DNA of 64,000 nucleotides from Myxococcota bacterium (GTDB taxonomy: Bacteria; Myxococcota_A; SURF-8), in assembly GCA_965140415.1 (NCBI GenBank), contig OZ223209.1, positions 1,856,001-1,920,000 of the forward strand, written 5' to 3'. A program made the translations under genes and the position numbers. The notes beneath the pieces are model-generated. The model made no database searches. It was not told the origin of the DNA and was given only the letters and a program-made list of their open reading frames with translations. This document shows positions 47,256 to 59,344 of the stretch, piece after piece. Every line of letters begins with the position of its first letter. Positions within the stretch are counted from its first letter, which is position 1.

Positions 47256-48790
47256 GGTGAGCCCTCTGTATTTTCGTATTTGAGCGCAAGTGCCTCGGCT
47301 GCTTCCTTGCGATCATCGAAGTCGTGTTTGACCGTACCAATGATTTGATAGGTCTCGTGGCCCTTGCCCGCGATGAGAATCACATCCCCTGTACGTCCAG
47401 CATTGACGGCAAAGCGGATGGCTTTCCGGCGATTTTCGATTACGACGAAACTATTTCGTTTCATGGCGGCAGGATCGTAGGGGTTGCCTTCCTGCAAGCC
47501 GCTTTTGCGAACACCTGGAACGATCTGTTCCAGAATTTCAACCGGATCCTCGGTTCTTGGATTATCGCTGGTAATGACGGCAATATCTGCCAGTTCTCCG
47601 GCAACTTTCCCCATTAATGGTCGTTTGCCCTTGTCTCTGTCGCCGCCACAGCCCATTACCACGATTAGCCGTCCAACTTTCAACTGTTGCAGCACTCCCA
47701 GTGCGTTTTTCAATGCGTCAGGCGTGTGGCTGTAATCCACGAAAATATGCAGGCCATTAGGATCGGCGACGCGCTCCAGTCTTCCTGGGATCACCTGAAG
47801 CGTTTCCAAGCCCGCGATGGCGTCGTCGGGGTCCAGCCGACAGGCCAAGCCGATGCCCAGAACCTGTAACAGATTGGAGACGTTGTAATCACCGATCAAA
47901 GGAGACCGCAGGGTATAGGTTTTACCGTTGATTTCGAGTTCCGCCAGTGAGCCCTTGATCGTGACGACATTGTGTGTGCAACGTAAATCGGCTCGCCAGT
48001 CGTCTTTGAGCGAGGTACGCAATACGCGCCCGCTGAATCCTACGATCAGGGAATCGGCTACCGGATCGTCGGCATTGATGACCGCCGTTTTGTGCAGCTT
48101 GGCGCTTTTTTCCAACAACGGTACGAACAATCGCCGCTTGGCTTCCGCGTAGCGACCCATGGTCTCATGATAATCCAGGTGATCGCGGCTCAAATTGGTG
48201 AACAGAGCACAATCTAGCTCAATGCCATCGGCGCGTCGCTGGTCCAGGGCGTGGCTGGAGATCTCGACGAACAGATGCGATACTCCATGCTGCACCATGT
48301 CACTCAACAGTTTCTGAAACGTGATGGGACCGGGCGTGGTGTTGGGTGCGTCCTGAACGATATCGTCATAGCGGTAGTTAACCGTGCCGATGACGCCCGG
48401 TTTCTTACCGGTGGCTTTCAACATGGCTTCCGACATGTAGGTGATCGAAGTTTTTCCGTTGGTGCCGGTGATCCCGCAGATAAATAGCTTTTTGGAAGGA
48501 TGACCGAAAAAGTGCGAAGCCAACGACCCGACGATGTTGCGGGTGTTTTCAAAGCGCGCAAAGGAGATACCTTCCGGAAGATCGGTTTCGGTCTCGGCGA
48601 TAATGGCGGTTGCACCTTTGTCCAGCGCCGATTGGATGTAGCGGTGTCCGTCTGCCGCAGAGCCACGGGTGGCGATAAAGCAGCAACCGGGCTGTACCTC
48701 GCGGGAATCGGTGGTGATTTGTGCGATTTCTGGATCGAGCGAATTGTGCTGCAAAGGTGAAAAGGGTTGAATGAGATCGAGAAACTTCAT
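47252..48790 (-). CDS. murE: UDP-MurNAc-dipeptide-mDAP ligase
   Basis: TGTNGKT, EISSHAL, DHLDYH, DNPR (mDAP specificity) and AGKGHE. Confidence 0.96.
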   Translation of the reverse strand: MKFLDLIQPFSPLQHNSLDPEIAQITTDSREVQPGCCFIATRGSAADGHRYIQSALDKGATAIIAETETDLPEGISFARFENTRNIVGSLASHFFGHPSKKLFICGITGTNGKTSITYMSEAMLKATGKKPGVIGTVNYRYDDIVQDAPNTTPGPITFQKLLSDMVQHGVSHLFVEISSHALDQRRADGIELDCALFTNLSRDHLDYHETMGRYAEAKRRLFVPLLEKSAKLHKTAVINADDPVADSLIVGFSGRVLRTSLKDDWRADLRCTHNVVTIKGSLAELEINGKTYTLRSPLIGDYNVSNLLQVLGIGLACRLDPDDAIAGLETLQVIPGRLERVADPNGLHIFVDYSHTPDALKNALGVLQQLKVGRLIVVMGCGGDRDKGKRPLMGKVAGELADIAVITSDNPRTEDPVEILEQIVPGVRKSGLQEGNPYDPAAMKRNSFVVIENRRKAIRFAVNAGRTGDVILIAGKGHETYQIIGTVKHDFDDRKEAAEALALKYENTEGSP

Positions 48791-50538
48791 TTGACCTCCG
48801 CGAAACTTTGAGTCTTGGTGGTGCATACACCCAATAACGGTGCGGATTTCTCCGCGATTTCCTTGAATGCCGGGCCGGCTACGTCGCCGCCGTAATATTT
48901 TTTCCCCATCGGTTCGTCCACCATCACGGCGATTAAAAGCTGGGGATTGTCAGCTGGCAGAAAGCCGACGAAGCTGCTGGTCCAGTAATCGCGAACCTTG
49001 TATTTCGCATTTTTAGCGAGCTTTTCCGCCGTACCGGTTTTTCCAGCAACCGGACAGCCTTCCACCTGCGCCTGCGTTCCGGTGCCGCCTTCCTGTACCG
49101 CAGCGACCAGCATCTGGCTGACCTGCTCGGCGATTTCTTCGGAAATCACGCGGCGTACTTCAACCGGTGGAAAGTCTTTCTTCACTTCACCTTCGGCGGT
49201 CAGCACTTGCTTGACTAGTCGCGGACGCATCAGGCGGCCTCCGTTAGCAATTACCGCAAAGGCGCTGGCCAATTGCAGCGGTGTGACGTTCAAACCCTGA
49301 CCGAAGGAAATGGTGGCCAATTCGACGGGTTGCCATCTTTCCGGTTTGGCCAGAATGCCACGTATTTCGGAAGGGAGGCGAATGCCCGTGGGCTGGGCAA
49401 AGCCGAAACGCAGCAGGTAGTCGTATAGCGTTTCTGCGCCTAATTCCGTTCCGATTTTGGCTACTCCAATATTGCTCGATTTGGCAAGCACGTCAGTGAT
49501 ACTCAACCAACCGTGTTTCTTGGTGTCGTGAATCGTGTCAGGACCGATGGTCAGTTCCCCGAAACCACAGTAAATTTTATCCTGCGGTTTATGCATTTCC
49601 TCCGCCAGTGCGGCTGAAATGATCATCGGTTTCAAGGTGCTACCCGGTTCATAGCTGTTTTCAATGGCGAAATTGTGCAGCCGTTCCTGGGGTATGCCGT
49701 TCAAATCATTCGGATCGAAAGTCGGGTATTGCGCCATGGCCAGGATTGCGCCTGTTTTGGGCTGCATGACGACCACGATCCCGCTTGCGGCTTTGTGTTC
49801 CTTAACCGTTTTCTTGATAACGTGTTCGGCGGCGAATTGCACGCCTTTGTCAATGGTGAGCAGTACATGATCGCCGGTCGGTGGGTCAAGGGACAGATCC
49901 AGCGTTTCCAGCGTGACGTTACCGAAGAGATCCTTCAGGCCCTTCAACTTGACGGCGTCGCTTTGCAGATCGTCATCGAAACTGCGCTCGACCCCCATTT
50001 TCCCATTCAAGTCGATATTGGTGAAACCAAGAATAGGCGCAGCCAGGCTGCCATTGGGGTAGAAACGCTTGTTTTCATCGGAGAGCAGCAGTCCGCGCGG
50101 ACGGTCGTCTTCCGGCAATGCGTTCATGGCGGATTGAAAACGGTCTATTTCTTTCTCGTTTAAACGGCGCTTGAGCCAGACGAAGTAGCGGTCGTAGTCG
50201 ATGCGTGCCAGTCGGTTGGCACGATTGCCGATGGTTTTTTTCGCTACCTGACGAGCGAATTCCTTTTCTTTGGGAGTCATGTTGCGCGGTTGTGCCGCTA
50301 AAGAGGGCACCTGCTTGTTGGTGGCCAGTAAGCGCTTCTGACGGTCGTAGATTTCACCTCGGCGCGGATGGATAACGATGGAGCCGATCGTTTGACGATT
50401 GGCCATGTTCCAGTGTTTTTCCCCATCGACTACCTGAATCGAAAACGCACGAATACCGATCAAGGCCATAAACATCAGCACCAGCGCCATGATGATGCCG
50501 ATTCTCAAATGCGTTTTTCGGTAGTTGCGGTCGAGCAT
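48787..50538 (-). CDS. ftsI: Penicillin-binding protein FtsI
   Basis: RGEIYDR, EPGSTLK (SxxK), SSN and KTGTA. Confidence 0.95.
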   Translation of the reverse strand: MLDRNYRKTHLRIGIIMALVLMFMALIGIRAFSIQVVDGEKHWNMANRQTIGSIVIHPRRGEIYDRQKRLLATNKQVPSLAAQPRNMTPKEKEFARQVAKKTIGNRANRLARIDYDRYFVWLKRRLNEKEIDRFQSAMNALPEDDRPRGLLLSDENKRFYPNGSLAAPILGFTNIDLNGKMGVERSFDDDLQSDAVKLKGLKDLFGNVTLETLDLSLDPPTGDHVLLTIDKGVQFAAEHVIKKTVKEHKAASGIVVVMQPKTGAILAMAQYPTFDPNDLNGIPQERLHNFAIENSYEPGSTLKPMIISAALAEEMHKPQDKIYCGFGELTIGPDTIHDTKKHGWLSITDVLAKSSNIGVAKIGTELGAETLYDYLLRFGFAQPTGIRLPSEIRGILAKPERWQPVELATISFGQGLNVTPLQLASAFAVIANGGRLMRPRLVKQVLTAEGEVKKDFPPVEVRRVISEEIAEQVSQMLVAAVQEGGTGTQAQVEGCPVAGKTGTAEKLAKNAKYKVRDYWTSSFVGFLPADNPQLLIAVMVDEPMGKKYYGGDVAGPAFKEIAEKSAPLLGVCTTKTQSFAEVK

Positions 50539-50555: not shown

Positions 50556-51044
50556 TTATTTCAGTTTCGTAATGTCGGAACTGCTAGGGCGGCGCATGCC
50601 GCGTTTTTCTGCATTTCGGATAATCAACTCCGGTTTCAAATAGGTCGTGATCTGGTTTTGAAGCTTTTCCTGTTGCAGATGCAAACTCTGCTCCTGGCGC
50701 ATTAACTCGGTGATTTTGAAGCGGGTTCGGCGATCGTGCACGACCGAGGACACGTAGACCAGGCAGATCGCAACCAGGGCTACGATAAGGGACACGAAAG
50801 CCAGTCGCTGAATGTTGCTGATCTGAAACGCGCCTTGTGGCTTGGCCACGGGCTTGGCTGCTTGGGCACCGGTATTGCGGCGGGTTTTGGTTTTTGCAGC
50901 GGCGGAGTTTGCATTGGCCAGTCTCACGCGGGTCGTGCGTGTTGCGGCGGTGCTACGTTTGGCCGTGCCGGATGAAGCGCTACGGCTTTTTTTCGGTAGG
51001 CTGATTGTAGCATAGCTCTTTTTCTGCTGAATGACATATTTCAT
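50556..51044 (-). CDS. ftsL: FtsL-like cell division protein with a long basic N-terminus
   Basis: Lies between rsmH and ftsI; single TM, coiled coil and A...GM..P tail. Confidence 0.7.
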   Translation of the reverse strand: MKYVIQQKKSYATISLPKKSRSASSGTAKRSTAATRTTRVRLANANSAAAKTKTRRNTGAQAAKPVAKPQGAFQISNIQRLAFVSLIVALVAICLVYVSSVVHDRRTRFKITELMRQEQSLHLQQEKLQNQITTYLKPELIIRNAEKRGMRRPSSSDITKLK

Positions 51045-51991
51045 CGGACACTCCTTTCCGCTACGCGCAGTTTGGCGCTACGGGCTCGGGGATTGGCCTC
51101 GATTTCTTTCTCGCTAGGCAATATCGGTTTCCGGGTCAGCACAACGGCTTCCCGGCGTTTATCACATCCGCAGACCGGCAGGTCCGGCGGGCAGATGCAG
51201 TCGATGGTCCAGTCGCGCATCGTGTGGCGCACGATACGATCTTCCAGGCTGTGATAGCTGATAACTGCAAGCCTGCCGCTCGGCTTGAGTGCATGCAGGG
51301 CCTGGGGTAGCAGTGCTTCCAGGCTGTCCAGTTCTCCGTTGACGGCAATGCGCAGCGCCTGGCAGGTCTGCGTGGCGGCATGAATACGCTTGGGATGAAA
51401 GCGGCGTGGAATCGCTTGCTCGACGATAGACGCCAGTTGGGTCATGTCGTTCAACTCACCTGCCTCCAACGCCTCTTTAAGCGCACGCGCAATGCGGTAG
51501 CCGTTGCGCTCTTCGCCGTAGCGGCTGATTATCGTCGCCAACTGTTTGGTGTCCAGTTGTTCGATCAGATCCTTCGCGCTGTTTCCTCGGCTTTGATCCA
51601 TGCGCATGTCGATGGGACCGGCGAAGCGGAAACTGAAGCCGCGTTCGGGATCGTCCAGTTGGCGGGAAGATAAACCCAGATCTGCCAGGATGCCATCTAC
51701 CGCTTCGATTTCAAGTTCCTCTAGTACCTGGGCCAGCTCGGCGAAGTTGGTTTGAACCATTTGCAAACGTTCGCCATAGCTGGACAGGCGCTGTCGGGTG
51801 TATTCGATTACCTGGGCGTCCAAGTCCAGACCGATCACCCGGCCTGTCGGTGCGGAGCGCTTCAGCATTTCTTCGATATGACCGCCGCCGTTTGCCGTAC
51901 AATCGACATACACACCGCCATCCACCGGTTGCAGCCAGTCCATGCATTGCGTAAGCAACACCGGCTTATGATGCAGCGCCAAACTCGTCAT
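51041..51991 (-). CDS. rsmH: 16S rRNA m4C1402 methyltransferase
   Basis: HKPVL, DCT..GGH, DLGLSS.QLD...RGFSF, ISYHSLEDR and NPRARSAKLR; start overlaps the STAS stop (TAATG). Confidence 0.96.
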   Translation of the reverse strand: MTSLALHHKPVLLTQCMDWLQPVDGGVYVDCTANGGGHIEEMLKRSAPTGRVIGLDLDAQVIEYTRQRLSSYGERLQMVQTNFAELAQVLEELEIEAVDGILADLGLSSRQLDDPERGFSFRFAGPIDMRMDQSRGNSAKDLIEQLDTKQLATIISRYGEERNGYRIARALKEALEAGELNDMTQLASIVEQAIPRRFHPKRIHAATQTCQALRIAVNGELDSLEALLPQALHALKPSGRLAVISYHSLEDRIVRHTMRDWTIDCICPPDLPVCGCDKRREAVVLTRKPILPSEKEIEANPRARSAKLRVAERSVR

Positions 51992-52323
51992 TACATCTGC
52001 TCCAGCGCCTGGCGAGGCGAGTCGAAACAATCGAAGGTCATCGGATAGCCGACTGCCGAGAAAATACTGGACACATAGTGGTTCATGCCCGCCAGTTGCA
52101 AGCTGCCATGTCTGCGACTCAATCGCCCAGCCACCGCAGCCAACAGATCGGCGGTGCGATAGTAAATATGCGAGGTGGCGCTTAAATCGATGACGAGTTG
52201 CCGGATGCCGTCGTCTTCCAGATTTTCCAGTGCGCGACGCAGCACGGGCAGGTCTTGACGGTCGATGACCGATCCTGCCGAAATAATGGCGATTCCCGTT
52301 CGTGGTTGACGAATGGTGAGCAT
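51991..52323 (-). CDS. STAS-domain protein
   Basis: G..ID...L...L..L....LVIDLS....I....L.L......V..IF..VG pattern; translationally coupled to rsmH. Confidence 0.75.
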   Translation of the reverse strand: MLTIRQPRTGIAIISAGSVIDRQDLPVLRRALENLEDDGIRQLVIDLSATSHIYYRTADLLAAVAGRLSRRHGSLQLAGMNHYVSSIFSAVGYPMTFDCFDSPRQALEQM

Positions 52324-52395
52324 ACTTCCGGTCTCCCAAGTTCCCAGTCGGTTATGAAAATCGAAAAGGCAATCAAATGAAAAATAGAAAAAATC

Positions 52396-52884
52396 TCAAC
52401 TGCTGAAATGGTGATTGTGCTTGAGCCACACATCGTGCGCTTTGGCGCGCAGCATATCGTCGATGGCTTCAAAGCGTTCCTTGGCCCAAAGTTCCATTTT
52501 CGAGCCGACACCGATCCACAGCACTTCGTTGTTCATCCCGGCCCAATCCCGGTAGAACTGTGGTAAAACCATGCGGCCCTGACGGTCCAGCTTGCATTCC
52601 ATCGCTCGTGAAATGTAACCGATGTACATGGCGTGGATCGCTTCCGGCTCTACTAGTCGGTTTACTTCCTCGCAACGTTGTTGCCATCCGCCCAAAGGCC
52701 AGATTTCGAAATAGCGTTGCTCCGGGTCATGGCCGGGAACGGCGATGATGCTTCCTGCTTCCTCTTCCGAAAGTTGGCTGCGGAAAGAACCGGGCATAAT
52801 CAGGCGAGCTTTGGCGTCGAATTCCTTCGCTACCATCCCCTGAAATAAATAGCCCTGTCGATCGTCCATGTTCACCATCAGCAA
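52396..52884 (-). CDS. mraZ: Division/cell wall transcriptional repressor MraZ
   Basis: FQG.....DAKARL.MP..FR and LDRQGRMVLP...GVG.K.ELW; start uncertain (52869-52884). Confidence 0.88.
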   Translation of the reverse strand: MLMVNMDDRQGYLFQGMVAKEFDAKARLIMPGSFRSQLSEEEAGSIIAVPGHDPEQRYFEIWPLGGWQQRCEEVNRLVEPEAIHAMYIGYISRAMECKLDRQGRMVLPQFYRDWAGMNNEVLWIGVGSKMELWAKERFEAIDDMLRAKAHDVWLKHNHHFSS

Positions 52885-52980
52885 ATGGTTGCGCCCCGAG
52901 GGGGAGTGTGTTAAAATCCCATCAATGTATTCGGGGTGTTAGCCCCGGTTTTCAACCCCCGAAGCATCCCCTTTTTTACA

Positions 52981-53020
52981 GAAAGTGGAAAAAAGTGGGC
53001 TAAAGTGGGCTGATATGGGA
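52981..53020. promoter_or_regulatory. MraZ-box-like direct repeats, four copies at 10-bp period
   Basis: GAAAGTGGAA AAAAGTGGGC TAAAGTGGGC TGATATGGGA, directly downstream of the mraZ -10. Confidence 0.75.
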
Positions 53021-53049
53021 ATTATAAGCAATACCCTATTATAGGGCAA
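53021..53049 (-). promoter_or_regulatory. dcw operon promoter
   Basis: TTGCCC-17 nt-TATAAT; includes the palindrome CCCTAT-T-ATAGGG. Confidence 0.7.
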
Positions 53050-53296
53050 GGTCTTTTTGGGACATCGTGTCTTTTTTTTCGTCGCTTTGCTATCTTGTAT
53101 GTCATCGCCAGGGAGGGCACAGGATATTGTGGTGTATAGTGCCTTGAACGGAGGATTTAAAAGCGACATGTAAAGGGCGATAGTCGTAAAAGATTAATAT
53201 CATTAATAATATAGGCGTTTTTAGTGTTGGAAGACCTTGGTTTGTGGTGATCGTTCCCAATCGGCTGGTAGTGTTTGTGAATGGGAGAAAGTGGGC

Positions 53297-55444
53297 ATGG
53301 CTCGTACCGTGGCTGAATACAAAGAAGACATTGCCCGACAGCGAGAGCAAATTCTTCAGATATATCTAACTCATTATCCGAACTACGACACCTCCCGTAT
53401 CGAAAAGGCAATGGATTATGCCGAGTTGTTGCATCGAGGTCAGATGCGTCGCAGCGGCAATCCCTACATTTTTCATCCCTTGGCCGTCACCCGCCTGGTG
53501 GCGGAAGCGGAACTGGATGAAAGCTGTTTGATTTCAGCCATTTTACACGACACGATTGAAGATACAGTCGCCAGTAAAGATGTGATTGCGGATAAATTCG
53601 ACCCGTACATCTCCGATCTGGTTCAGGCGATGACCAAGATCAAGAGCTATTCCGCTGAGCGCCGCGAAGAAGACAAGCGACTGACCTACAAGCGTATCCT
53701 GAAGGCGGCGAGTAAGGATATTCGGCCTTTATTGATCAAGATATATGACCGCTTAAATAACATGCGTGAGATGTCGCATATGCCCGAGGGGCATCGATTG
53801 CGGATTTCACGTGAGACTCTGGAGGTTTACGTTCCCCTGGCAAGGCGTCTTGGCATGAGCCGCGTAGAGCGGGAACTGATCAATCACTCCCTGAAATATC
53901 TCTATGCCAAACCCTATAAGGCGATCAAGGAACGTTTGGCCAAGGAAAGCGATCTACGCGAAGACGAAATCAGCGCAACGTTGGAACTCATCGATTCCAC
54001 CTTCCGCGCCCAGAATATCTGGTTGGAACTGGTTTCCGCCTGGCCGGCGGCTGCGGATTTCTACCAACCGAATATCGGTATTGCCACCGAAGGAGAAATT
54101 GAAGTACAGCTTAACCTGATCCTGCCGGAAATACAGAATTTATACCTGGCCTTGGGGATCATGCATCAGCTCTTCACTCCGGTACCGCTACAGATTCGCG
54201 ACATGGTGGCCAGCCCGATGGCCAACGGTTTCCGCGCGTTGTTGACCAAGGTGGTGATCGGGGGTCGTATCTATCGCGTGTCGATTTCCACGCCGGAAAT
54301 GTATCAGGTCAATCAACGTGGCATCGTTCACAACTGGAAGCAGAATCAGAACCGCCTGTCCGGTTATTACACCAATTACATGCAGATTCTGGAAGAACTG
54401 CTGGCCGACGAGGAAGTGCGCGTCGATGACGTGCTGCGTCAGTCCTCGGTGGATGGTCTGGCGATTTTCTCTCCGCGCAAAGATTTGTATATCCTGCCGG
54501 AGGGCAGCACGGTTATCGATTTCGCTTATGAGATCCACCAGCAGGTCGGTGAACACGCCAAAGAGGCGCTGGTAAACGGTGTCGCTCGACCCATCAGCCA
54601 CGAGTTGAAGACCGGGGATGTCGTGCGTATCATCACCGACAGCAAAGTACATCCGGAAAAGAACTGGGTGGATTTTGCGAAAAGCCCCAAAGCCCGGTCC
54701 AATATCAACAACTGGCTGCGGCGCGAAATGGAGCGGCGCATTGTCGAAATGGGGCGTTCTCTGCTGTTTGCGGAACTGGAAAAATACGGGCGCGATCCGT
54801 TGGTTGTAGTGGAAAGCGCGGAATTTAAGGAGATCTTAAAGCAGCATAAATTCAAGCTGGATGAGTTGTACCGGCGCATCGGATATCGGCAGATTATCGC
54901 GAGTCGCTTCGTTCGCAAGAACGGGATCATTCCGGCGGAACAGATAGACCGGCGTAAGCGCATCGAGCGGCAGTCGATCCGTGACCGTTTGTTCAATACG
55001 TTAAAGAGCAAACGCGGGCAGACCTGGAAGTTCAAAAAAGACGATATTTTCGTAAAATATGCGCGCTGTTGCAACCCGATCTTTGGAGACAAAGTGGTGG
55101 GAGTCTTAAGCGAAGGCAAAGGCGTGACCGTGCATCGCGACATCTGCCCGAATTTGAAAACGATCGAAGCCGACAAGCGTATTGAGGTGGAATGGGACAC
55201 CGAGGGTTTATCCACTTCAGCGCTTTTGAATCTGCATATCGGAGACCGGCAAGGTGTGATGGCCAAGATCCTGAATGTCGTCAACAAGCACGGCGTTAAT
55301 ATGAGTGAATTCAATGCCTATACGGTCGGTCACGAAGCCTTCATGAAAGTTCGGCTGGATGTGAATAGCCAGCGCGAACTGATAAAAATCGTGAACGATA
55401 TTCGTAAAATCGAAGAAGTGATCTCGATTACGCGCGAAGAGTAA
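53297..55444 (+). CDS. Long RelA/SpoT homolog (HD, degenerate SYNTH, TGS, ZFD, ACT)
   Basis: H.GQ.R.SG.PY..HP, LHDTIED, DRL.NMR, TGS (DFAY.IH..VG), CCNP..GD and a C-terminal ACT domain. Confidence 0.9.
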   Translation: MARTVAEYKEDIARQREQILQIYLTHYPNYDTSRIEKAMDYAELLHRGQMRRSGNPYIFHPLAVTRLVAEAELDESCLISAILHDTIEDTVASKDVIADKFDPYISDLVQAMTKIKSYSAERREEDKRLTYKRILKAASKDIRPLLIKIYDRLNNMREMSHMPEGHRLRISRETLEVYVPLARRLGMSRVERELINHSLKYLYAKPYKAIKERLAKESDLREDEISATLELIDSTFRAQNIWLELVSAWPAAADFYQPNIGIATEGEIEVQLNLILPEIQNLYLALGIMHQLFTPVPLQIRDMVASPMANGFRALLTKVVIGGRIYRVSISTPEMYQVNQRGIVHNWKQNQNRLSGYYTNYMQILEELLADEEVRVDDVLRQSSVDGLAIFSPRKDLYILPEGSTVIDFAYEIHQQVGEHAKEALVNGVARPISHELKTGDVVRIITDSKVHPEKNWVDFAKSPKARSNINNWLRREMERRIVEMGRSLLFAELEKYGRDPLVVVESAEFKEILKQHKFKLDELYRRIGYRQIIASRFVRKNGIIPAEQIDRRKRIERQSIRDRLFNTLKSKRGQTWKFKKDDIFVKYARCCNPIFGDKVVGVLSEGKGVTVHRDICPNLKTIEADKRIEVEWDTEGLSTSALLNLHIGDRQGVMAKILNVVNKHGVNMSEFNAYTVGHEAFMKVRLDVNSQRELIKIVNDIRKIEEVISITREE

Positions 55445-55678: not shown

Positions 55679-58480
55679 ATGAATCGGAATATGGTGGCGT
55701 TTTTCGCCTTTTGCGTTGTATGGCTAGTAGCCGGTTCCGTCGCGGCGACCGAGCCGGGGCTTTCTCTGCAAGGCTTTACCGCCAAATATCCCACTGCCAA
55801 GTTGGATATCCAACAGGGGCAGGTGCGTATGATCGCCAATGTGAAGATTCCGACAACGGAAGCAAAAACGGCCACCCTGCGGGCGCAGTCGTTTTTACAG
55901 GCCAATGCCCGCTTATTGCAATTGGGTGACGTGCAGCGGGATTTCAGCGCGCAGAAGGAACTGACTCTGCGGCAGGGTAAGGTGGCTCATTTTATCCAGA
56001 CCTACCAGGGAATTCCCGTCTATCATGGGGAAATCAAGGTGGTGTTGGATGCAGAGGGCAATGTGACTCGCGTTCACAATCATGCTCGCCGGGTGGAGGG
56101 CTTGTCGCTCGTGCCCGCCATCAGTCCGAACGATGCGATCATGGAAGGCTGGGCGCAGGTTTACGGAGTGGCTGGAAATCAATTGACCGCTCGCGAGATG
56201 GATTCCAAATACGCCCGTCTGCTCGTGATGGGACATGGTGCAGGCGCGGTTTTAGCCTATGCCGTTGGGATGCCGATCGGACTGCCGACCGAGCGCCGGG
56301 TGGCTTTTATCGATGCGCACACTGGCGATTTTCTGGGTTCGATGAACCAGGTCGTGTACGCGCATATGGCGAACGTGTACGAATTCAATCCGGGTGGCGA
56401 TACAAGCAATCCGCAGGCGACCGTCGTGCGCGAGATCGGCTATATGGCGCCGGATCAAAAGCATTGCCTGGGCATGTTCCACTATGCTTATAACTGCATC
56501 GACGAAGGCGATACGTTCAATATTCCGTTCCTGGGCAGTATTCCGCGCTGCACCGAGCGTTACAAAGCCGAAGCCGATGAAAACTACGATTTCGACAAGC
56601 ACGTGCTGCCGGTACTTGGCGATGCCGAAACGGAAGGCGTGTTGGATGATGACTTCTCCGAAGTGCATCTGTTCTACCACGTCGATAAAATCTACACCTA
56701 CTTCCGCCAACTGGCGCAGCACATCGATGATACAGACCCTCCCTTTGAAACGCTGACGGAGCCGGTGCTCAATTGCGTGGCGAACTTCCGCACGTTGGAC
56801 GTCGAGGAGATCATGTCCACCGGCCAGATTCCCACCAACCCTGAACTTGCGCCGTTTAATAACGCCATGTTCGTAACGGGTGGTGGCTTGTTCGGCTTCT
56901 ATCCCGAGCGGGATTCCATCATCTTCGGACAGGGTTCCGGTGTAGACTTCTCCTACGATGCGGACGTCATCTACCACGAATTCACCCATGCCGTCGTGGG
57001 TAGTACGGCGGGACTGGCCTCGACGGCATACGACCAATACGGGGCGGCCACCGATCCGGGCGCGATGAACGAAGGCTATGCGGACTTCTTTTCCGCGACT
57101 TACGTCGGCAATCCCGAGATGGCCGAATATGTGGGTAATTTCCTGTCCGAGGAGAACTATCTGCGCAACTTGACCAACACGAAGAGCTGCCCGACCGACG
57201 TCAAAGGCGAAGTTCACGACGATTCGGAATGGTGGTCTGGAGCTTTGTGGACGGTGCGCGAGCAGTACAAGGCTTCCGATCAGGATCACTGGGACGTCGA
57301 TGCGGCGATTTTCAGTGCTATGATCACCCTGCCTGCCGAAGCTACGTACACCGAAGCCGCAACGGCAACGGTTGAAAGTATGCGCACCTGGTTCGGCGAG
57401 GATGCTGCCACGTTTGCAACTACCACCTTTACCAATCGCGGCCTGTTCAACTGTACTCGCGCAGTGCCCACCAATGCAGGGCAGGCGATCTCCTCCTACT
57501 CCTTCCCCAGCGACAGCAAAACGCCTTCCACTCCGGGCTATTTCCAGTTGGACATTCAAGGCGCTAGCAAGGATTACATCCGGGTTGAATTTCTGGCAAT
57601 CGCGCAGGGCGGCATTATGGGCGGTTCCACGGATGTCACGGTCTTCATCCGCAAGGATCTGCCGGTGACGTTTGAATACGATGGAGATACCGTTACGGCG
57701 ACGGCGGACATGGTGGTGAATCCGGTCAAATTCGGAACGATCATGAACCAGTTCGATCAGTACGTCGGTATCGCGCAAAACGAGGATGGCAGCCCCATCG
57801 GCGGTCATTACTATTTCGCGTTTGGCGTGGCCAGCAGTGGTGGCGGCATGTTCGATATGGGCGGCGGCACACTGTACAACCTGAAAGTGGAATTTTTAGA
57901 CGGCGTTCCCCCCTGCACGGCGGATGAGGATTGTGGCGATTGCCAGATCTGCAACGACGAGCATGCCTGTGAAGATGCCTATGGCGAATGCATGAACGAC
58001 TCAGACTGCGATAGCGGCTATGTCTGTGAAGACAACGAAGGCTGCGGCGGTCATTGCGAAGAAGTGCCCTTAGATGGCGATCTGACGGACGGCGACATGA
58101 CGGCGGATGGCGACAATGCTCCCGATGGCGATGTCGATGGCGACGATTCCGACGGGGATACGAGCGAACCGGACTGCACCGTCAGCGCGGATTGCGGCGA
58201 CTGTCAGATCTGCGTCAGCGGCGTTTGTTTGGATGCCGCGCCCGAATGCGAAGAGGATGAAGATTGCGAAGAGGGCGAAATCTGCGGTGAAGGCGAGTGC
58301 GGTGGTGAGTGTCAGGCGATCGACGGCGATCAGGCCGATGGCGATGAACCTGCCGATGGTGATACCGGCGTCGGCCAGAATGATGGCAGTGGCGGCGGTT
58401 GCGGACAGACCACGGGGTCGGCAGCCTGGCTATTACTGCTGGGCTTTGGATTGCTGCTGCTTCGCAGGCGCTTTGTCTGA
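55679..58480 (+). CDS. Secreted M4/M36-type zinc metalloprotease with Cys-rich and DGD regions and a MYXO-CTERM-like anchor
   Basis: Signal peptide; propeptide motifs (Q.YQGIPVY, IDAHTG); NNA, HEFTH, NEGYAD, GEVH; C-terminus GGGC..T....WLLLLGFGLLLLRRR. Confidence 0.85.
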   Translation: MNRNMVAFFAFCVVWLVAGSVAATEPGLSLQGFTAKYPTAKLDIQQGQVRMIANVKIPTTEAKTATLRAQSFLQANARLLQLGDVQRDFSAQKELTLRQGKVAHFIQTYQGIPVYHGEIKVVLDAEGNVTRVHNHARRVEGLSLVPAISPNDAIMEGWAQVYGVAGNQLTAREMDSKYARLLVMGHGAGAVLAYAVGMPIGLPTERRVAFIDAHTGDFLGSMNQVVYAHMANVYEFNPGGDTSNPQATVVREIGYMAPDQKHCLGMFHYAYNCIDEGDTFNIPFLGSIPRCTERYKAEADENYDFDKHVLPVLGDAETEGVLDDDFSEVHLFYHVDKIYTYFRQLAQHIDDTDPPFETLTEPVLNCVANFRTLDVEEIMSTGQIPTNPELAPFNNAMFVTGGGLFGFYPERDSIIFGQGSGVDFSYDADVIYHEFTHAVVGSTAGLASTAYDQYGAATDPGAMNEGYADFFSATYVGNPEMAEYVGNFLSEENYLRNLTNTKSCPTDVKGEVHDDSEWWSGALWTVREQYKASDQDHWDVDAAIFSAMITLPAEATYTEAATATVESMRTWFGEDAATFATTTFTNRGLFNCTRAVPTNAGQAISSYSFPSDSKTPSTPGYFQLDIQGASKDYIRVEFLAIAQGGIMGGSTDVTVFIRKDLPVTFEYDGDTVTATADMVVNPVKFGTIMNQFDQYVGIAQNEDGSPIGGHYYFAFGVASSGGGMFDMGGGTLYNLKVEFLDGVPPCTADEDCGDCQICNDEHACEDAYGECMNDSDCDSGYVCEDNEGCGGHCEEVPLDGDLTDGDMTADGDNAPDGDVDGDDSDGDTSEPDCTVSADCGDCQICVSGVCLDAAPECEEDEDCEEGEICGEGECGGECQAIDGDQADGDEPADGDTGVGQNDGSGGGCGQTTGSAAWLLLLGFGLLLLRRRFV

Positions 58481-58568: not shown

Positions 58569-58916
58569 CTATTCTTCGGGATGTTTATTGTGACGATAGA
58601 GGTGAACGAAAACCGGTTGCAGTGTAACCAGTCCCTCAGAGATCATTTCGTCCAGTTCCGGCAATAGGGCATCGATGCGCTCCTGCTTGTCTACGATTTC
58701 CACCACCATGGGTAGATCTTCAGACAGGCGCAGGATTTTACTGGTGTGAATGGTGCTGTTGGCACCGTACCCCAAACAGCCTCGAAGAACGGTCGCACCG
58801 GCCAGGCCCAGTTCCCGCGCACGCTCGACGATGACTTCGTACAGCGCCTGTCCCTGCCAGCTGTCGCTTTCTCCGATGAAGATGCGCAGCAGTTTCGCTT
58901 CGGATTGATGAATCAT
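58569..58916 (-). CDS. DUF190 (PII-like) protein
   Basis: LLRIFIGESD, LAGATVLRG..G.G and LS.DLP.VVEIVD; this family is commonly paired with crcB. Confidence 0.88.
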   Translation of the reverse strand: MIHQSEAKLLRIFIGESDSWQGQALYEVIVERARELGLAGATVLRGCLGYGANSTIHTSKILRLSEDLPMVVEIVDKQERIDALLPELDEMISEGLVTLQPVFVHLYRHNKHPEE

Positions 58917-58925
58917 CGTTTCCTC

Positions 58926-59303
58926 CTAAGCCATGCGACCCAGTGCGATGCCTGCGAACAAGGCGACGACCCCCAGGCCGTTTTGCAGGATGATGTTTCC
59001 AGCAGCCAGCACGTATTGCGCCTGGCGCAGCAGTTCTCCGGTTTCCAGTACAAAGGTGCTGAATGTCGTGAATGCGCCCATTAAACCGACCATGACGATC
59101 AGTCGCGTTTCAGCGGAGATTTGCAGGCGATATTCGAACAAGGCCCACAATAATCCGGCGATAAAGCAGCCGCTGATATTCACAACCACCGTTCCCCAAG
59201 GAAAGCTTACGCCGTTGATGCGGTACACAAGGCCCGATAATCCGTAACGCGCCAACGCTCCCAAGCCGCCTGCAAGAGCCATCCATACAAATTTCTGCCA
59301 CAT
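58926..59303 (-). CDS. crcB: Fluoride channel Fluc/CrcB
   Basis: GG.GAL.RY, FPWGT..VN..G.F and G..GAFTTFSTF..E. Confidence 0.93.
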   Translation of the reverse strand: MWQKFVWMALAGGLGALARYGLSGLVYRINGVSFPWGTVVVNISGCFIAGLLWALFEYRLQISAETRLIVMVGLMGAFTTFSTFVLETGELLRQAQYVLAAGNIILQNGLGVVALFAGIALGRMA

Positions 59304-59344
59304 GAAAAGATCCTCTTTGTTGCTGTCCATTCGTTTCTTTAACT

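Follow-up and report, generated by a model that had tools for sequence, protein, structure and literature searches.

What does a full-length RelA/SpoT homologue (RSH) do once every one of its synthetase motifs has been replaced? The question is raised by a gene at 53297..55444 (+ strand, 715 aa) in a stretch of 64,000 nucleotides from a Myxococcota bacterium, the whole of which is called the window here. The original prediction, read from the DNA, was of a long RSH that hydrolyses (p)ppGpp and no longer makes it. According to the analysis presented here, in which we place good confidence, this gene, termed H-type, probably encodes a monofunctional (p)ppGpp hydrolase of class [Hs] with a conserved pseudo-synthetase (pseudo-SYNTH) domain. 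It is paired in the genome with a synthetase-type ([hS]) partner, termed S-type, and both copies would be ancestral to the order-level group of the window.

The reading frame extends from a TTG at 53237 to 55444 with no internal stops, and the ATG at 53297 is a plausible start, being preceded by GGGAGA and in agreement with the starts of all relatives. The product opens with an HD (hydrolase) domain (aa 38-187, 53408..53857; Pfam HD_4 115.2 bits, cut-off 27.2) in which the catalytic motifs are intact. It is followed by the pseudo-SYNTH domain (about aa 240-355, 54014..54361), where the fold is kept and the catalytic motifs are lost; here Pfam RelA_SpoT matches only in part, over model positions 32-108 of 113, with 28.1 bits (cut-off 27) compared to 141.6 bits in the paralogue. 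A Core/linker segment (54362..54451), remodelled and shorter than in canonical Rel, connects pseudo-SYNTH to the TGS domain (aa 390-447, 54464..54637; Pfam TGS 61 bits). Next come a helical and zinc-finger (AH/RIS) region with the motif CCNPIFGD...HRDIC (aa 464-624, 54686..55168; Pfam RelA_AH_RIS 28 bits) and an ACT/RRM domain (aa 644-713, 55226..55435; Pfam ACT_4 41.9 bits), all on the + strand. The zinc finger CCxP...HR..C is present and its Cys/His columns are invariant across the clade, so that retention of the TGS, zinc-finger and ACT domains, as claimed at the outset, holds. The order of an HD_4 domain, a RelA_SpoT-fold domain and C-terminal TGS, helical-zinc-finger and ACT domains places the protein in the long RSH superfamily.

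Scores against family models are in line with a divergent member of this superfamily. NCBIfam TIGR00691 (spoT_relA subfamily) gives 450.4 bits (E 1e-134), under its cut-off of 499.2, and 693.6 bits for the paralogue; the shortfall fits the decayed SYNTH region, and homology of the H-type protein is not in question. The SpoT equivalog of Beta- and Gammaproteobacteria (NF008303) scores 329.7 bits against a cut-off of 947, and the RelA equivalog (NF008124, monofunctional synthetase) 222.7 bits against 728. Among PDB sequences, mycobacterial Rel is matched best (282 bits), ahead of B. subtilis Rel (256), E. coli RelA (220) and Acinetobacter SpoT 7qpr (217.6).

Catalytic competence was assessed at 14 synthetase and 8 hydrolase positions, each constant in canonical Rel, which we chose as key positions following the RelSeq literature. 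The hydrolase set consists of R, the H of HP, HD, ED, and the D and N of DRLxN. Motifs were aligned against B. subtilis Rel, RelSeq, E. coli RelA and 27 canonical Rel sequences. The window protein retains 8/8 hydrolase residues, in the motifs HRGQMRRSGNPYIFHP, ILHDTIEDT, KIYDRLNNMRE and ETLEVYVPLARRLG, and 0/14 synthetase residues. Every replacement named in the original prediction is present in the translation and aligns with the motif it was assigned to: GRxKxxxSIxxK corresponds to SAWPAAADFYQ, D..A.R to GEIEVQLN, KDYIAxPKxNGYQSLHT to RDMVASPMANGFRALLT, EVQIRT to RVSIST, and AAHWxYK to IVHNWKQ. As a prediction from sequence, the assignment of a hydrolase-only long RSH with intact HD motifs is thus borne out.

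The same pattern extends through the whole H-type clade, represented by 28 rows (11 genomic and 17 metagenomic, of which latter three are identical to genome rows and four more near-identical). The hydrolase residues are 8/8 in 28/28 rows, while 0-6 of the 14 synthetase residues remain, most of them in G001, the most basal member. No H-type copy retains the G-loop/GRxK motif or the AAHW motif. Canonical rows (20 Myxococcota Rel and seven outgroups) have 8/8 hydrolase and 12-14/14 synthetase residues, and all motifs are intact in 20/20 Rel sequences examined from other Myxococcota. With a SYNTH hidden Markov model (HMM), the window protein scores 49 bits, the H-type rows 29-67, the S-type rows 166-200 and the canonical rows 194-234; with the corresponding HD model the H-type rows score 95-180, the S-type rows 117-242 (G030 highest) and the canonical rows 265-317, the canonical values being high by construction because both models were built from canonical rows. 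Retention of the HD residues, loss of the SYNTH residues within a domain that is itself retained, and the presence of a separate synthetase-competent long RSH in the genome are the features found for class [Hs].

This second long RSH was located in the genome of the window, G000 (5.98 Mb). When the whole genome was searched in six frames with PF04607 and PF13328, each model matched two places, the same two long RSH genes, and no small alarmone synthetase or hydrolase was found by these searches. The S-type paralogue (728 aa; RelA_SpoT 141.6 bits, TIGR00691 693.6) lies outside the window at G000:C1:371779-373965 (L001:370-2556, - strand). It carries 13/14 synthetase residues, and in this way the synthetase-competent Rel that was to be sought elsewhere in the genome has been identified. 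Only 4/8 of its hydrolase residues are kept: HDxxED reads HDAQVE (ED to VE), DRLHN reads DRLQV (N to V), and the Arg of GQxRxSG is lost (R to S). Judged by these residues, the H-type protein looks to degrade the alarmone only, and the S-type protein looks mainly or only to make it.

S-type copies from 11 genomes have 13-14/14 synthetase residues without exception, and their hydrolase residues are reduced to 0-5/8 in 10/11. Damage to the HD site varies by lineage at the same columns, with HD changed to HQ, WY, QP, LA or HA. The S-type paralogue of G030 (L055, G030:C2:772994-775168) has 8/8 hydrolase residues, and its ten counterparts have lost 3-8 of them. On this evidence, the genus of G030 may still be in an intermediate [Hs]+[HS] state.

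Although its catalytic motifs are lost, the pseudo-SYNTH domain carries conserved motifs of its own that are specific to the clade (WPxxxDFY, RDMIASPMANGYRALET and GIIHNWKVNQNRLSGY). Identity within the clade is 0.42 in pseudo-SYNTH, 0.40 in the helical region and 0.58 in HD. Synonymous sites are saturated in all pairs, and usable, if rough, substitution values could be obtained only from the closest pair, G018/G048. In this pair, the nonsynonymous rate (dN) of pseudo-SYNTH is 0.069, the synonymous rate (dS) about 1.8 and their ratio, omega, about 0.04; the dN of HD, 0.053, is the lowest among the large domains.

An AlphaFold2 model of the H-type protein was built from a 74-row alignment (mean predicted local distance difference test score, pLDDT, 84.9; predicted template-modelling score, pTM, 0.65), and pLDDT over pseudo-SYNTH is mostly above 90. 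The modelled half comprising HD and pseudo-SYNTH superposes on the N-terminal domains (NTDs) of S. aureus Rel (Z 34.9, root-mean-square deviation (rmsd) 2.2 A, 321 residues) and RelSeq (Z 33.1, rmsd 1.8 A, 308 residues). Taken singly, modelled pseudo-SYNTH superposes on small alarmone synthetases (Z about 13), HD on small alarmone hydrolases and Mesh1 (Z about 15, rmsd 2.3-2.6 A), and ACT on ACT-domain structures (Z 12-13.6, rmsd 1.2-2 A). Judged by the model and the substitution values, the pseudo-SYNTH domain is folded and under purifying selection, and is not drifting or decaying. The adjoining Core is remodelled in a regular manner. Counted from S5 Trp to TGS Pro, its length is 47-48 aa in 28/28 H-type rows and 54-55 aa in the 27 canonical ones, and identity of the Core is 0.57 within the H-type clade and 0.14 to canonical Rel. 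The HD alpha6-alpha7 loop is not shortened.

A word-indexed search through 5.8 billion proteins returned 17 relatives at 40-63% identity, after which identity drops to about 31%; the closest relatives appear to come from Myxococcota or 'Myxococcales' metagenome-assembled genomes (MAGs). From the window protein and these relatives, 18 sequences in all, a clade profile was built and searched against 401 genomes sampled from the phylum. A long RSH is present in 392/401 of them, and most of the 390 genomes other than the 11 discussed below show one match. Scores above 800 bits were obtained in 9/401 genomes, all of this order (6/6 in family f1, 2/2 in f4 and 1/1 in f3), G001 (neighbouring family f5) scored 607 bits, and canonical Rel reached at most 540. 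Both the H-type and the S-type gene are present in 10/10 further genomes (nine of the same order and G001), and so in 11/11 when G000 is included; the H-type copy of G005 is very divergent.

In a tree of 55 rows (LG+G4), H-type, S-type and the sampled canonical Myxococcota Rel form separate clades, with Shimodaira-Hasegawa-like approximate likelihood ratio test (SH-aLRT) supports of 100, 88 and 98. The posterior mean site frequency (PMSF) mixture model gives the same groups with 100, 59 and 97. Across three tree runs, S-type support was 88, 59 and 89, and that of H-type was 100. E. coli RelA and SpoT fall among the outgroups, apart from both the H-type and the other Myxococcota clades, in trees that were built without any Moraxellaceae SpoT sequence. 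The H-type proteins thus make up a clade of their own, distinct from E. coli SpoT and RelA, in agreement with the independent origin proposed originally. An apparently independent origin also accords with the different phylum, with the lack of a 7qpr match to pseudo-SYNTH at E<=10 and with scores far below the SpoT and RelA equivalog cut-offs.

Internal branching of the H-type and S-type clades is congruent. G001, G005 and G012 are deep in both, and the groupings G018+G048, G036+G042 and G000/G030/G054/G024 recur, indicating that both copies predate the radiation of the group. Because the G-loop/GRxK and AAHW motifs are lost in all H-type copies, the synthetase would have been impaired already in their common ancestor. 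G030 is nested in family f1 as (G024,(G000,(G030,G054))), with supports of 99, 95 and 92. If loss is irreversible, the S-type HD site would have been lost at least three times independently within f1, and up to eight times in the resolved tree. From these patterns in the sequences we infer that the H-type synthetase was lost first, and the S-type hydrolase later and repeatedly.

Combining these observations, the following scheme can be proposed. The H-type protein would be a (p)ppGpp 3'-pyrophosphohydrolase of the long-RSH type with an HD domain predicted to be catalytically competent. Its synthetase domain would have turned into a folded, conserved and non-catalytic pseudo-SYNTH. By analogy with Acinetobacter SpoT, pseudo-SYNTH, the remodelled Core and the TGS, zinc-finger and ACT/RRM domains probably serve the hydrolase together, either as its scaffold or as an allosteric module. 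The S-type copy, of class [hS], whose SYNTH motifs are intact and whose HD site is damaged, would make the alarmone that the H-type protein removes. The pair would have been in place in the common ancestor of the order-level group of the window, with the H-type synthetase site lost by then, and the S-type hydrolase sites would have been lost later, several times independently. Its observed basis consists of the motif states, the domain architecture, the distribution, the congruent trees, the purifying selection and the predicted fold; from these we infer what each enzyme does, that pseudo-SYNTH is regulatory, and which losses came first.

Several observations weigh against this scheme or parts of it. 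Intact HD motifs do not prove catalysis, and H-type hydrolase activity is in this sense predicted. The H-type HD domain is quite diverged overall, scoring no better than the decayed HD of S-type copies. The S-type protein of G000 keeps the metal-ligand His and Asp, and residual hydrolysis by this copy is possible. A Glu at the catalytic EVQIRT column is retained in a few H-type members (G018, G048 and P0005). Omega values are rough, because even G018/G048, the closest pair, has a saturated dS (about 1.6 or more). Compared with 7qpr (VIA), the AlphaFold2 model gives Z 29.3 but an rmsd of 18.4 A over 462 residues and does not reproduce the compact arrangement of full-length SpoT, inter-domain placement in the model being uncertain at this pTM; mechanistic analogy with SpoT therefore rests on domain content only. 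Concerning origin, a tree that unites H-type and S-type in a single clade is worse by 6.5 log-likelihood units, and the approximately unbiased (AU) test does not reject it (p-AU 0.22); this test used 37 rows and LG+G4, a model more prone to long-branch effects than the site-heterogeneous PMSF. Duplication within the lineage is thus compatible with the data, and a horizontal origin of the H-type copy is possible; H-type forms a long branch without a specific sister, and the trees do not distinguish duplication from transfer.

Divergence of the HD domain also bears on whether the enzyme acts on (p)ppGpp at all. A hydrolase with a changed substrate or role would likewise combine kept key residues with low overall scores (95-180 bits compared to 265-317 in canonical Rel); it could act on (p)ppApp or another 3'-pyrophosphorylated nucleotide, or use the pseudo-SYNTH pocket as a ligand sensor. 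New, strongly conserved clade-specific motifs in pseudo-SYNTH and Core would suit such a role, and HD-fold relatives with other substrates, the (p)ppApp hydrolase 7smg and Mesh1 with NADPH, are found among the structures. We regard this as unlikely, given that all residues scored for ppGpp hydrolysis are unchanged throughout the clade and that the top structural matches are Rel NTDs rather than the (p)ppApp hydrolase. Moreover, one of the two long RSHs in the genome is a dedicated (p)ppGpp synthetase and the searches for both domain families gave no further hydrolase candidate, so removal of ppGpp would need the H-type gene.

A protein silent in both domains, with a purely regulatory role (towards the S-type enzyme or the ribosome, for instance), would be divergent over its whole length and under the TIGR00691 cut-off, with the C-terminal half retained and conserved, as is the case here. 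Such a role is nevertheless improbable: invariance of the HD catalytic residues in a clade of 40-63% overall identity is hard to explain without catalysis, dN is lowest in HD of all large domains, and the genome would be left without any RSH hydrolase, the S-type HD site being damaged. Least credible of all, and in our view very improbable, is an enzyme that is still bifunctional through a non-canonical synthetase site. This would accord with public labels of clade members, with preservation of the SYNTH fold and with an Asp, aligned to the metal-binding Asp, that is kept in most members. The labels are automatic names, though, and the motifs GRxK and KDY...PK...Q..H are gone, as mostly is the catalytic Glu, from a site that keeps none of the scored residues in the window protein and at most six elsewhere in the clade. 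Acinetobacter SpoT, with comparable losses, is synthetase-dead by experiment (PMC9974481). A monofunctional (p)ppGpp hydrolase with a conserved pseudo-SYNTH remains the preferred explanation.

The closest known parallel is SpoT[Hs] of Moraxellaceae. Acinetobacter baumannii SpoT (7QPR/7QPS) has the same order of HD, pseudo-SYNTH, Core, TGS, helical, zinc-finger and ACT/RRM domains as the H-type protein and also a shortened Core linker. As in H-type, hydrolase motifs are kept and synthetase motifs lost in Moraxellaceae SpoT, which is likewise paired with a synthetase-only long RSH as the sole source of alarmone. Acinetobacter SpoT is described as hydrolase-only with a regulatory pseudo-SYNTH, as established by experiment, and shorter linkers and a folded Core are tied to hydrolase specialisation (Tamman et al., PMC9974481), and the Moraxellaceae case is termed 'complete subfunctionalization' (Atkinson et al., PMC3153485). 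Differences are also evident. The H-type protein belongs to a different phylum and apparently descends from a Rel ancestor, not from beta/gamma-proteobacterial SpoT, and it is closer to mycobacterial Rel than to Acinetobacter SpoT in the PDB matches above. A search with the pseudo-SYNTH segment alone found no match to 7qpr at E<=10, and RelA and Rel were matched at about 40 bits. The motifs that replace the synthetase ones are specific to the clade, and the HD alpha6-alpha7 loop has kept its length. The global arrangement of the AlphaFold2 model does not match the compact tau-state, in which the C-terminal half wraps around the Core, although 7qpr is the top full-length Foldseek match by E-value (TM 0.43); given the uncertain inter-domain placement, the model speaks neither for nor against such a state.

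Division of labour between two long RSH paralogues also characterises the E. coli pair RelA[hS]/SpoT[HS], and the S-type partner has a degenerate pseudo-HD like RelA. E. coli SpoT retains a weak synthetase, whereas the H-type window protein has none of the synthetase residues. In Proteobacteria, the hydrolase function of RelA disappeared shortly after the duplication, and it is only in Moraxellaceae that SpoT has given up its synthetase (PMC9974481 and PMC3153485). The order proposed here would be the reverse, the synthetase site of one copy having gone first. Canonical bifunctional Rel[HS] of Myxococcota, the likely ancestor of H-type, has the same length and architecture. It differs in that overall identity is only about 30%, its SYNTH HMM scores are 207-234 bits compared to 29-67, its Core is 7 aa longer, and the H-type protein always occurs with a second long RSH.

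RshA-D are second-copy Rel paralogues, among them RshD in four delta-proteobacteria, and their origin by duplication or transfer is uncertain (Atkinson et al. 2011, PMC3153485). They resemble H-type as a divergent second long RSH in the genome. As described in PMC3153485, where RshD is only loosely defined, they are [HS] with both domains conserved (RshB diverges in HD only); SYNTH is not conserved in H-type, which is set apart from them by this description. None of these groups comes from Myxococcota, the string 'myxococc' occurring 0 times in the main text of that paper. Jimmy et al. (2020) count 13 long-RSH subfamilies, and the entries listed in their supplementary table include Myxococcus xanthus with Rel[HS],PbcSpo[H],Rel[S], Haliangium with Rel[HS] and Sandaracinus with Rel[HS],MixSpo[H]. 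Full-text searches on hydrolase-only and monofunctional long RSHs and on (p)ppGpp hydrolases in Myxococcota yielded only studies of Acinetobacter SpoT, structural papers connected with them and papers on plant RSHs.

Rarity of such proteins, the other premise of the original prediction, holds for the literature, where few lineages are described, and less so for metagenomic proteins, in which similar decay recurs. The clade profile, run over 1.84 billion representative proteins, recovered P0016 and P0018 of the core clade and 148 further proteins. In a fast alignment, in which some columns may be misplaced, 13/148 of the latter combine 8/8 hydrolase residues with at most 8/14 synthetase residues. 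These 13 include relatives of G012, G001 and G005, the SAR324 MAG protein P0129 and the SpoT-like protein P0241 of Taylorella equigenitalis. Long RSHs with intact HD and decayed SYNTH outside the core clade are P0241, P0129, P0123, P0126, P0135, P0164, P0208, P0213, P0218 and P0234. Other SYNTH-decayed long RSHs (Taylorella, SAR324 and MAG proteins) score 440-620 bits against the clade profile, compared to more than 800 in the core clade. Judged from these alignments, hydrolase-only long RSHs seem to arise repeatedly and across lineages.

At the window locus, the H-type gene lies head-to-head with a division and cell-wall cluster, as first reported. Its first gene is mraZ (52396..52884, - strand; Pfam MraZ 74.9 bits), followed on the same strand by rsmH (51041-52339; Methyltransf_5 360.7 bits), a small open reading frame in the ftsL position with no Pfam match (50556-51044) and an ftsI/PBP3-like gene (48787-50538; Transpeptidase 272.5 and PBP_dimer 62.5 bits). 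A divergent intergenic region of 412 bp (52885..53296) separates mraZ from the H-type gene. The arrangement is common to G000, G030, G054 and G024, and in the other 7/11 genomes the roughly 8 kb preceding the H-type gene contain no division cluster. Synteny with the division cluster was accordingly rejected as a defining feature of the H-type gene and is a feature of a sub-lineage (4/11 genomes), so that the arrangement stands for the window and not as a general rule.

Within the spacer, a simple promoter scan detected a sigma-70-like site before mraZ (TTGCCC-17-TATAAT, 53049-53021, - strand), and no such site for the H-type gene on the + strand. No Rfam family or riboswitch was found in it beyond a chance-level match to a snoRNA model (E 0.37). 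Just downstream of the minus-strand promoter-like site, four xTGGx pentamers (GTGGA, GTGGG, GTGGG, ATGGG) are spaced with an exact 10-bp period (52985..53019), and three relatives have comparable 10-11-bp arrays (TAGGG/TTGGG) in the corresponding region. The array resembles the MraZ autoregulatory operator of E. coli and is a candidate MraZ site. About 90 bp upstream of the H-type start codon, a palindrome ATTAAT-N3-ATTAAT (53193..53207) is conserved in all four genomes with the mraZ arrangement. The 5.98-Mb genome contains only two such sites, the other being just upstream of dnaA (G000:C1:150302-150316, L084:2003-2017), and G030 likewise has one before dnaA. A control search with the reversed pattern gave 0 sites everywhere. 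This palindrome may be a putative operator for a regulator common to the H-type gene and dnaA.

Other features of the neighbourhood are given for completeness. The rsmH frame as listed encodes 432 aa, but the MraW/RsmH Pfam match begins at residue 122; its TTG start is probably placed too far upstream, or the protein has an unusual N-terminal extension. Directly downstream of the H-type gene (55679-58480, + strand), a 933-aa protein carries a fungalysin/thermolysin propeptide motif and weak M36/M4 peptidase matches; its DUF7107 score of 22.7 bits is just under the Pfam cut-off of 24.6. The gene for this protein was not found beside the H-type gene in the loci of relatives examined. Adjacent DUF190 and crcB genes lie at 58569-59330 (- strand), a pairing typical of fluoride resistance.

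Three clade members with public names (P0004, P0295 and P0296) are called 'bifunctional (p)ppGpp synthetase/...pyrophosphohydrolase', a label that, to go by their residues, is probably an over-annotation. The motif losses described here flag systematic mis-annotation of the clade in public records. In these bacteria, the H-type gene is predicted to be the sole route of (p)ppGpp removal, and hence is likely essential while the synthetase is present.

A broader possibility, which we offer tentatively and consider rather doubtful, is that an uncultured Myxococcota order has re-run the RelA/SpoT split from a bifunctional Rel in reverse order. A dedicated hydrolase with a re-purposed pseudo-SYNTH and a short Core would have come early, and repeated loss of the S-type HD would have followed, with G030 as an intermediate. 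In one sub-lineage, wiring to the cell cycle through mraZ, ATTAAT-N3-ATTAAT and dnaA would have been added, such that removal of the alarmone would come under common control with the initiation of replication and with division.

Long RSHs confined to hydrolysis were known before, and the H-type protein is apparently a further, independent instance of complete subfunctionalisation of the RelA/SpoT type. To our knowledge, Moraxellaceae are the only group in which experiments have documented that two long RSH paralogues fully divide alarmone synthesis and hydrolysis between them, and the case serves there as a model for how conformational constraint tunes RSH enzymes. An independent replicate in another phylum would help to separate convergent from incidental features of hydrolase specialisation, and the different replacement motifs, the shortened Core and a partner series graded from intact to fully decayed HD are useful features in this respect.

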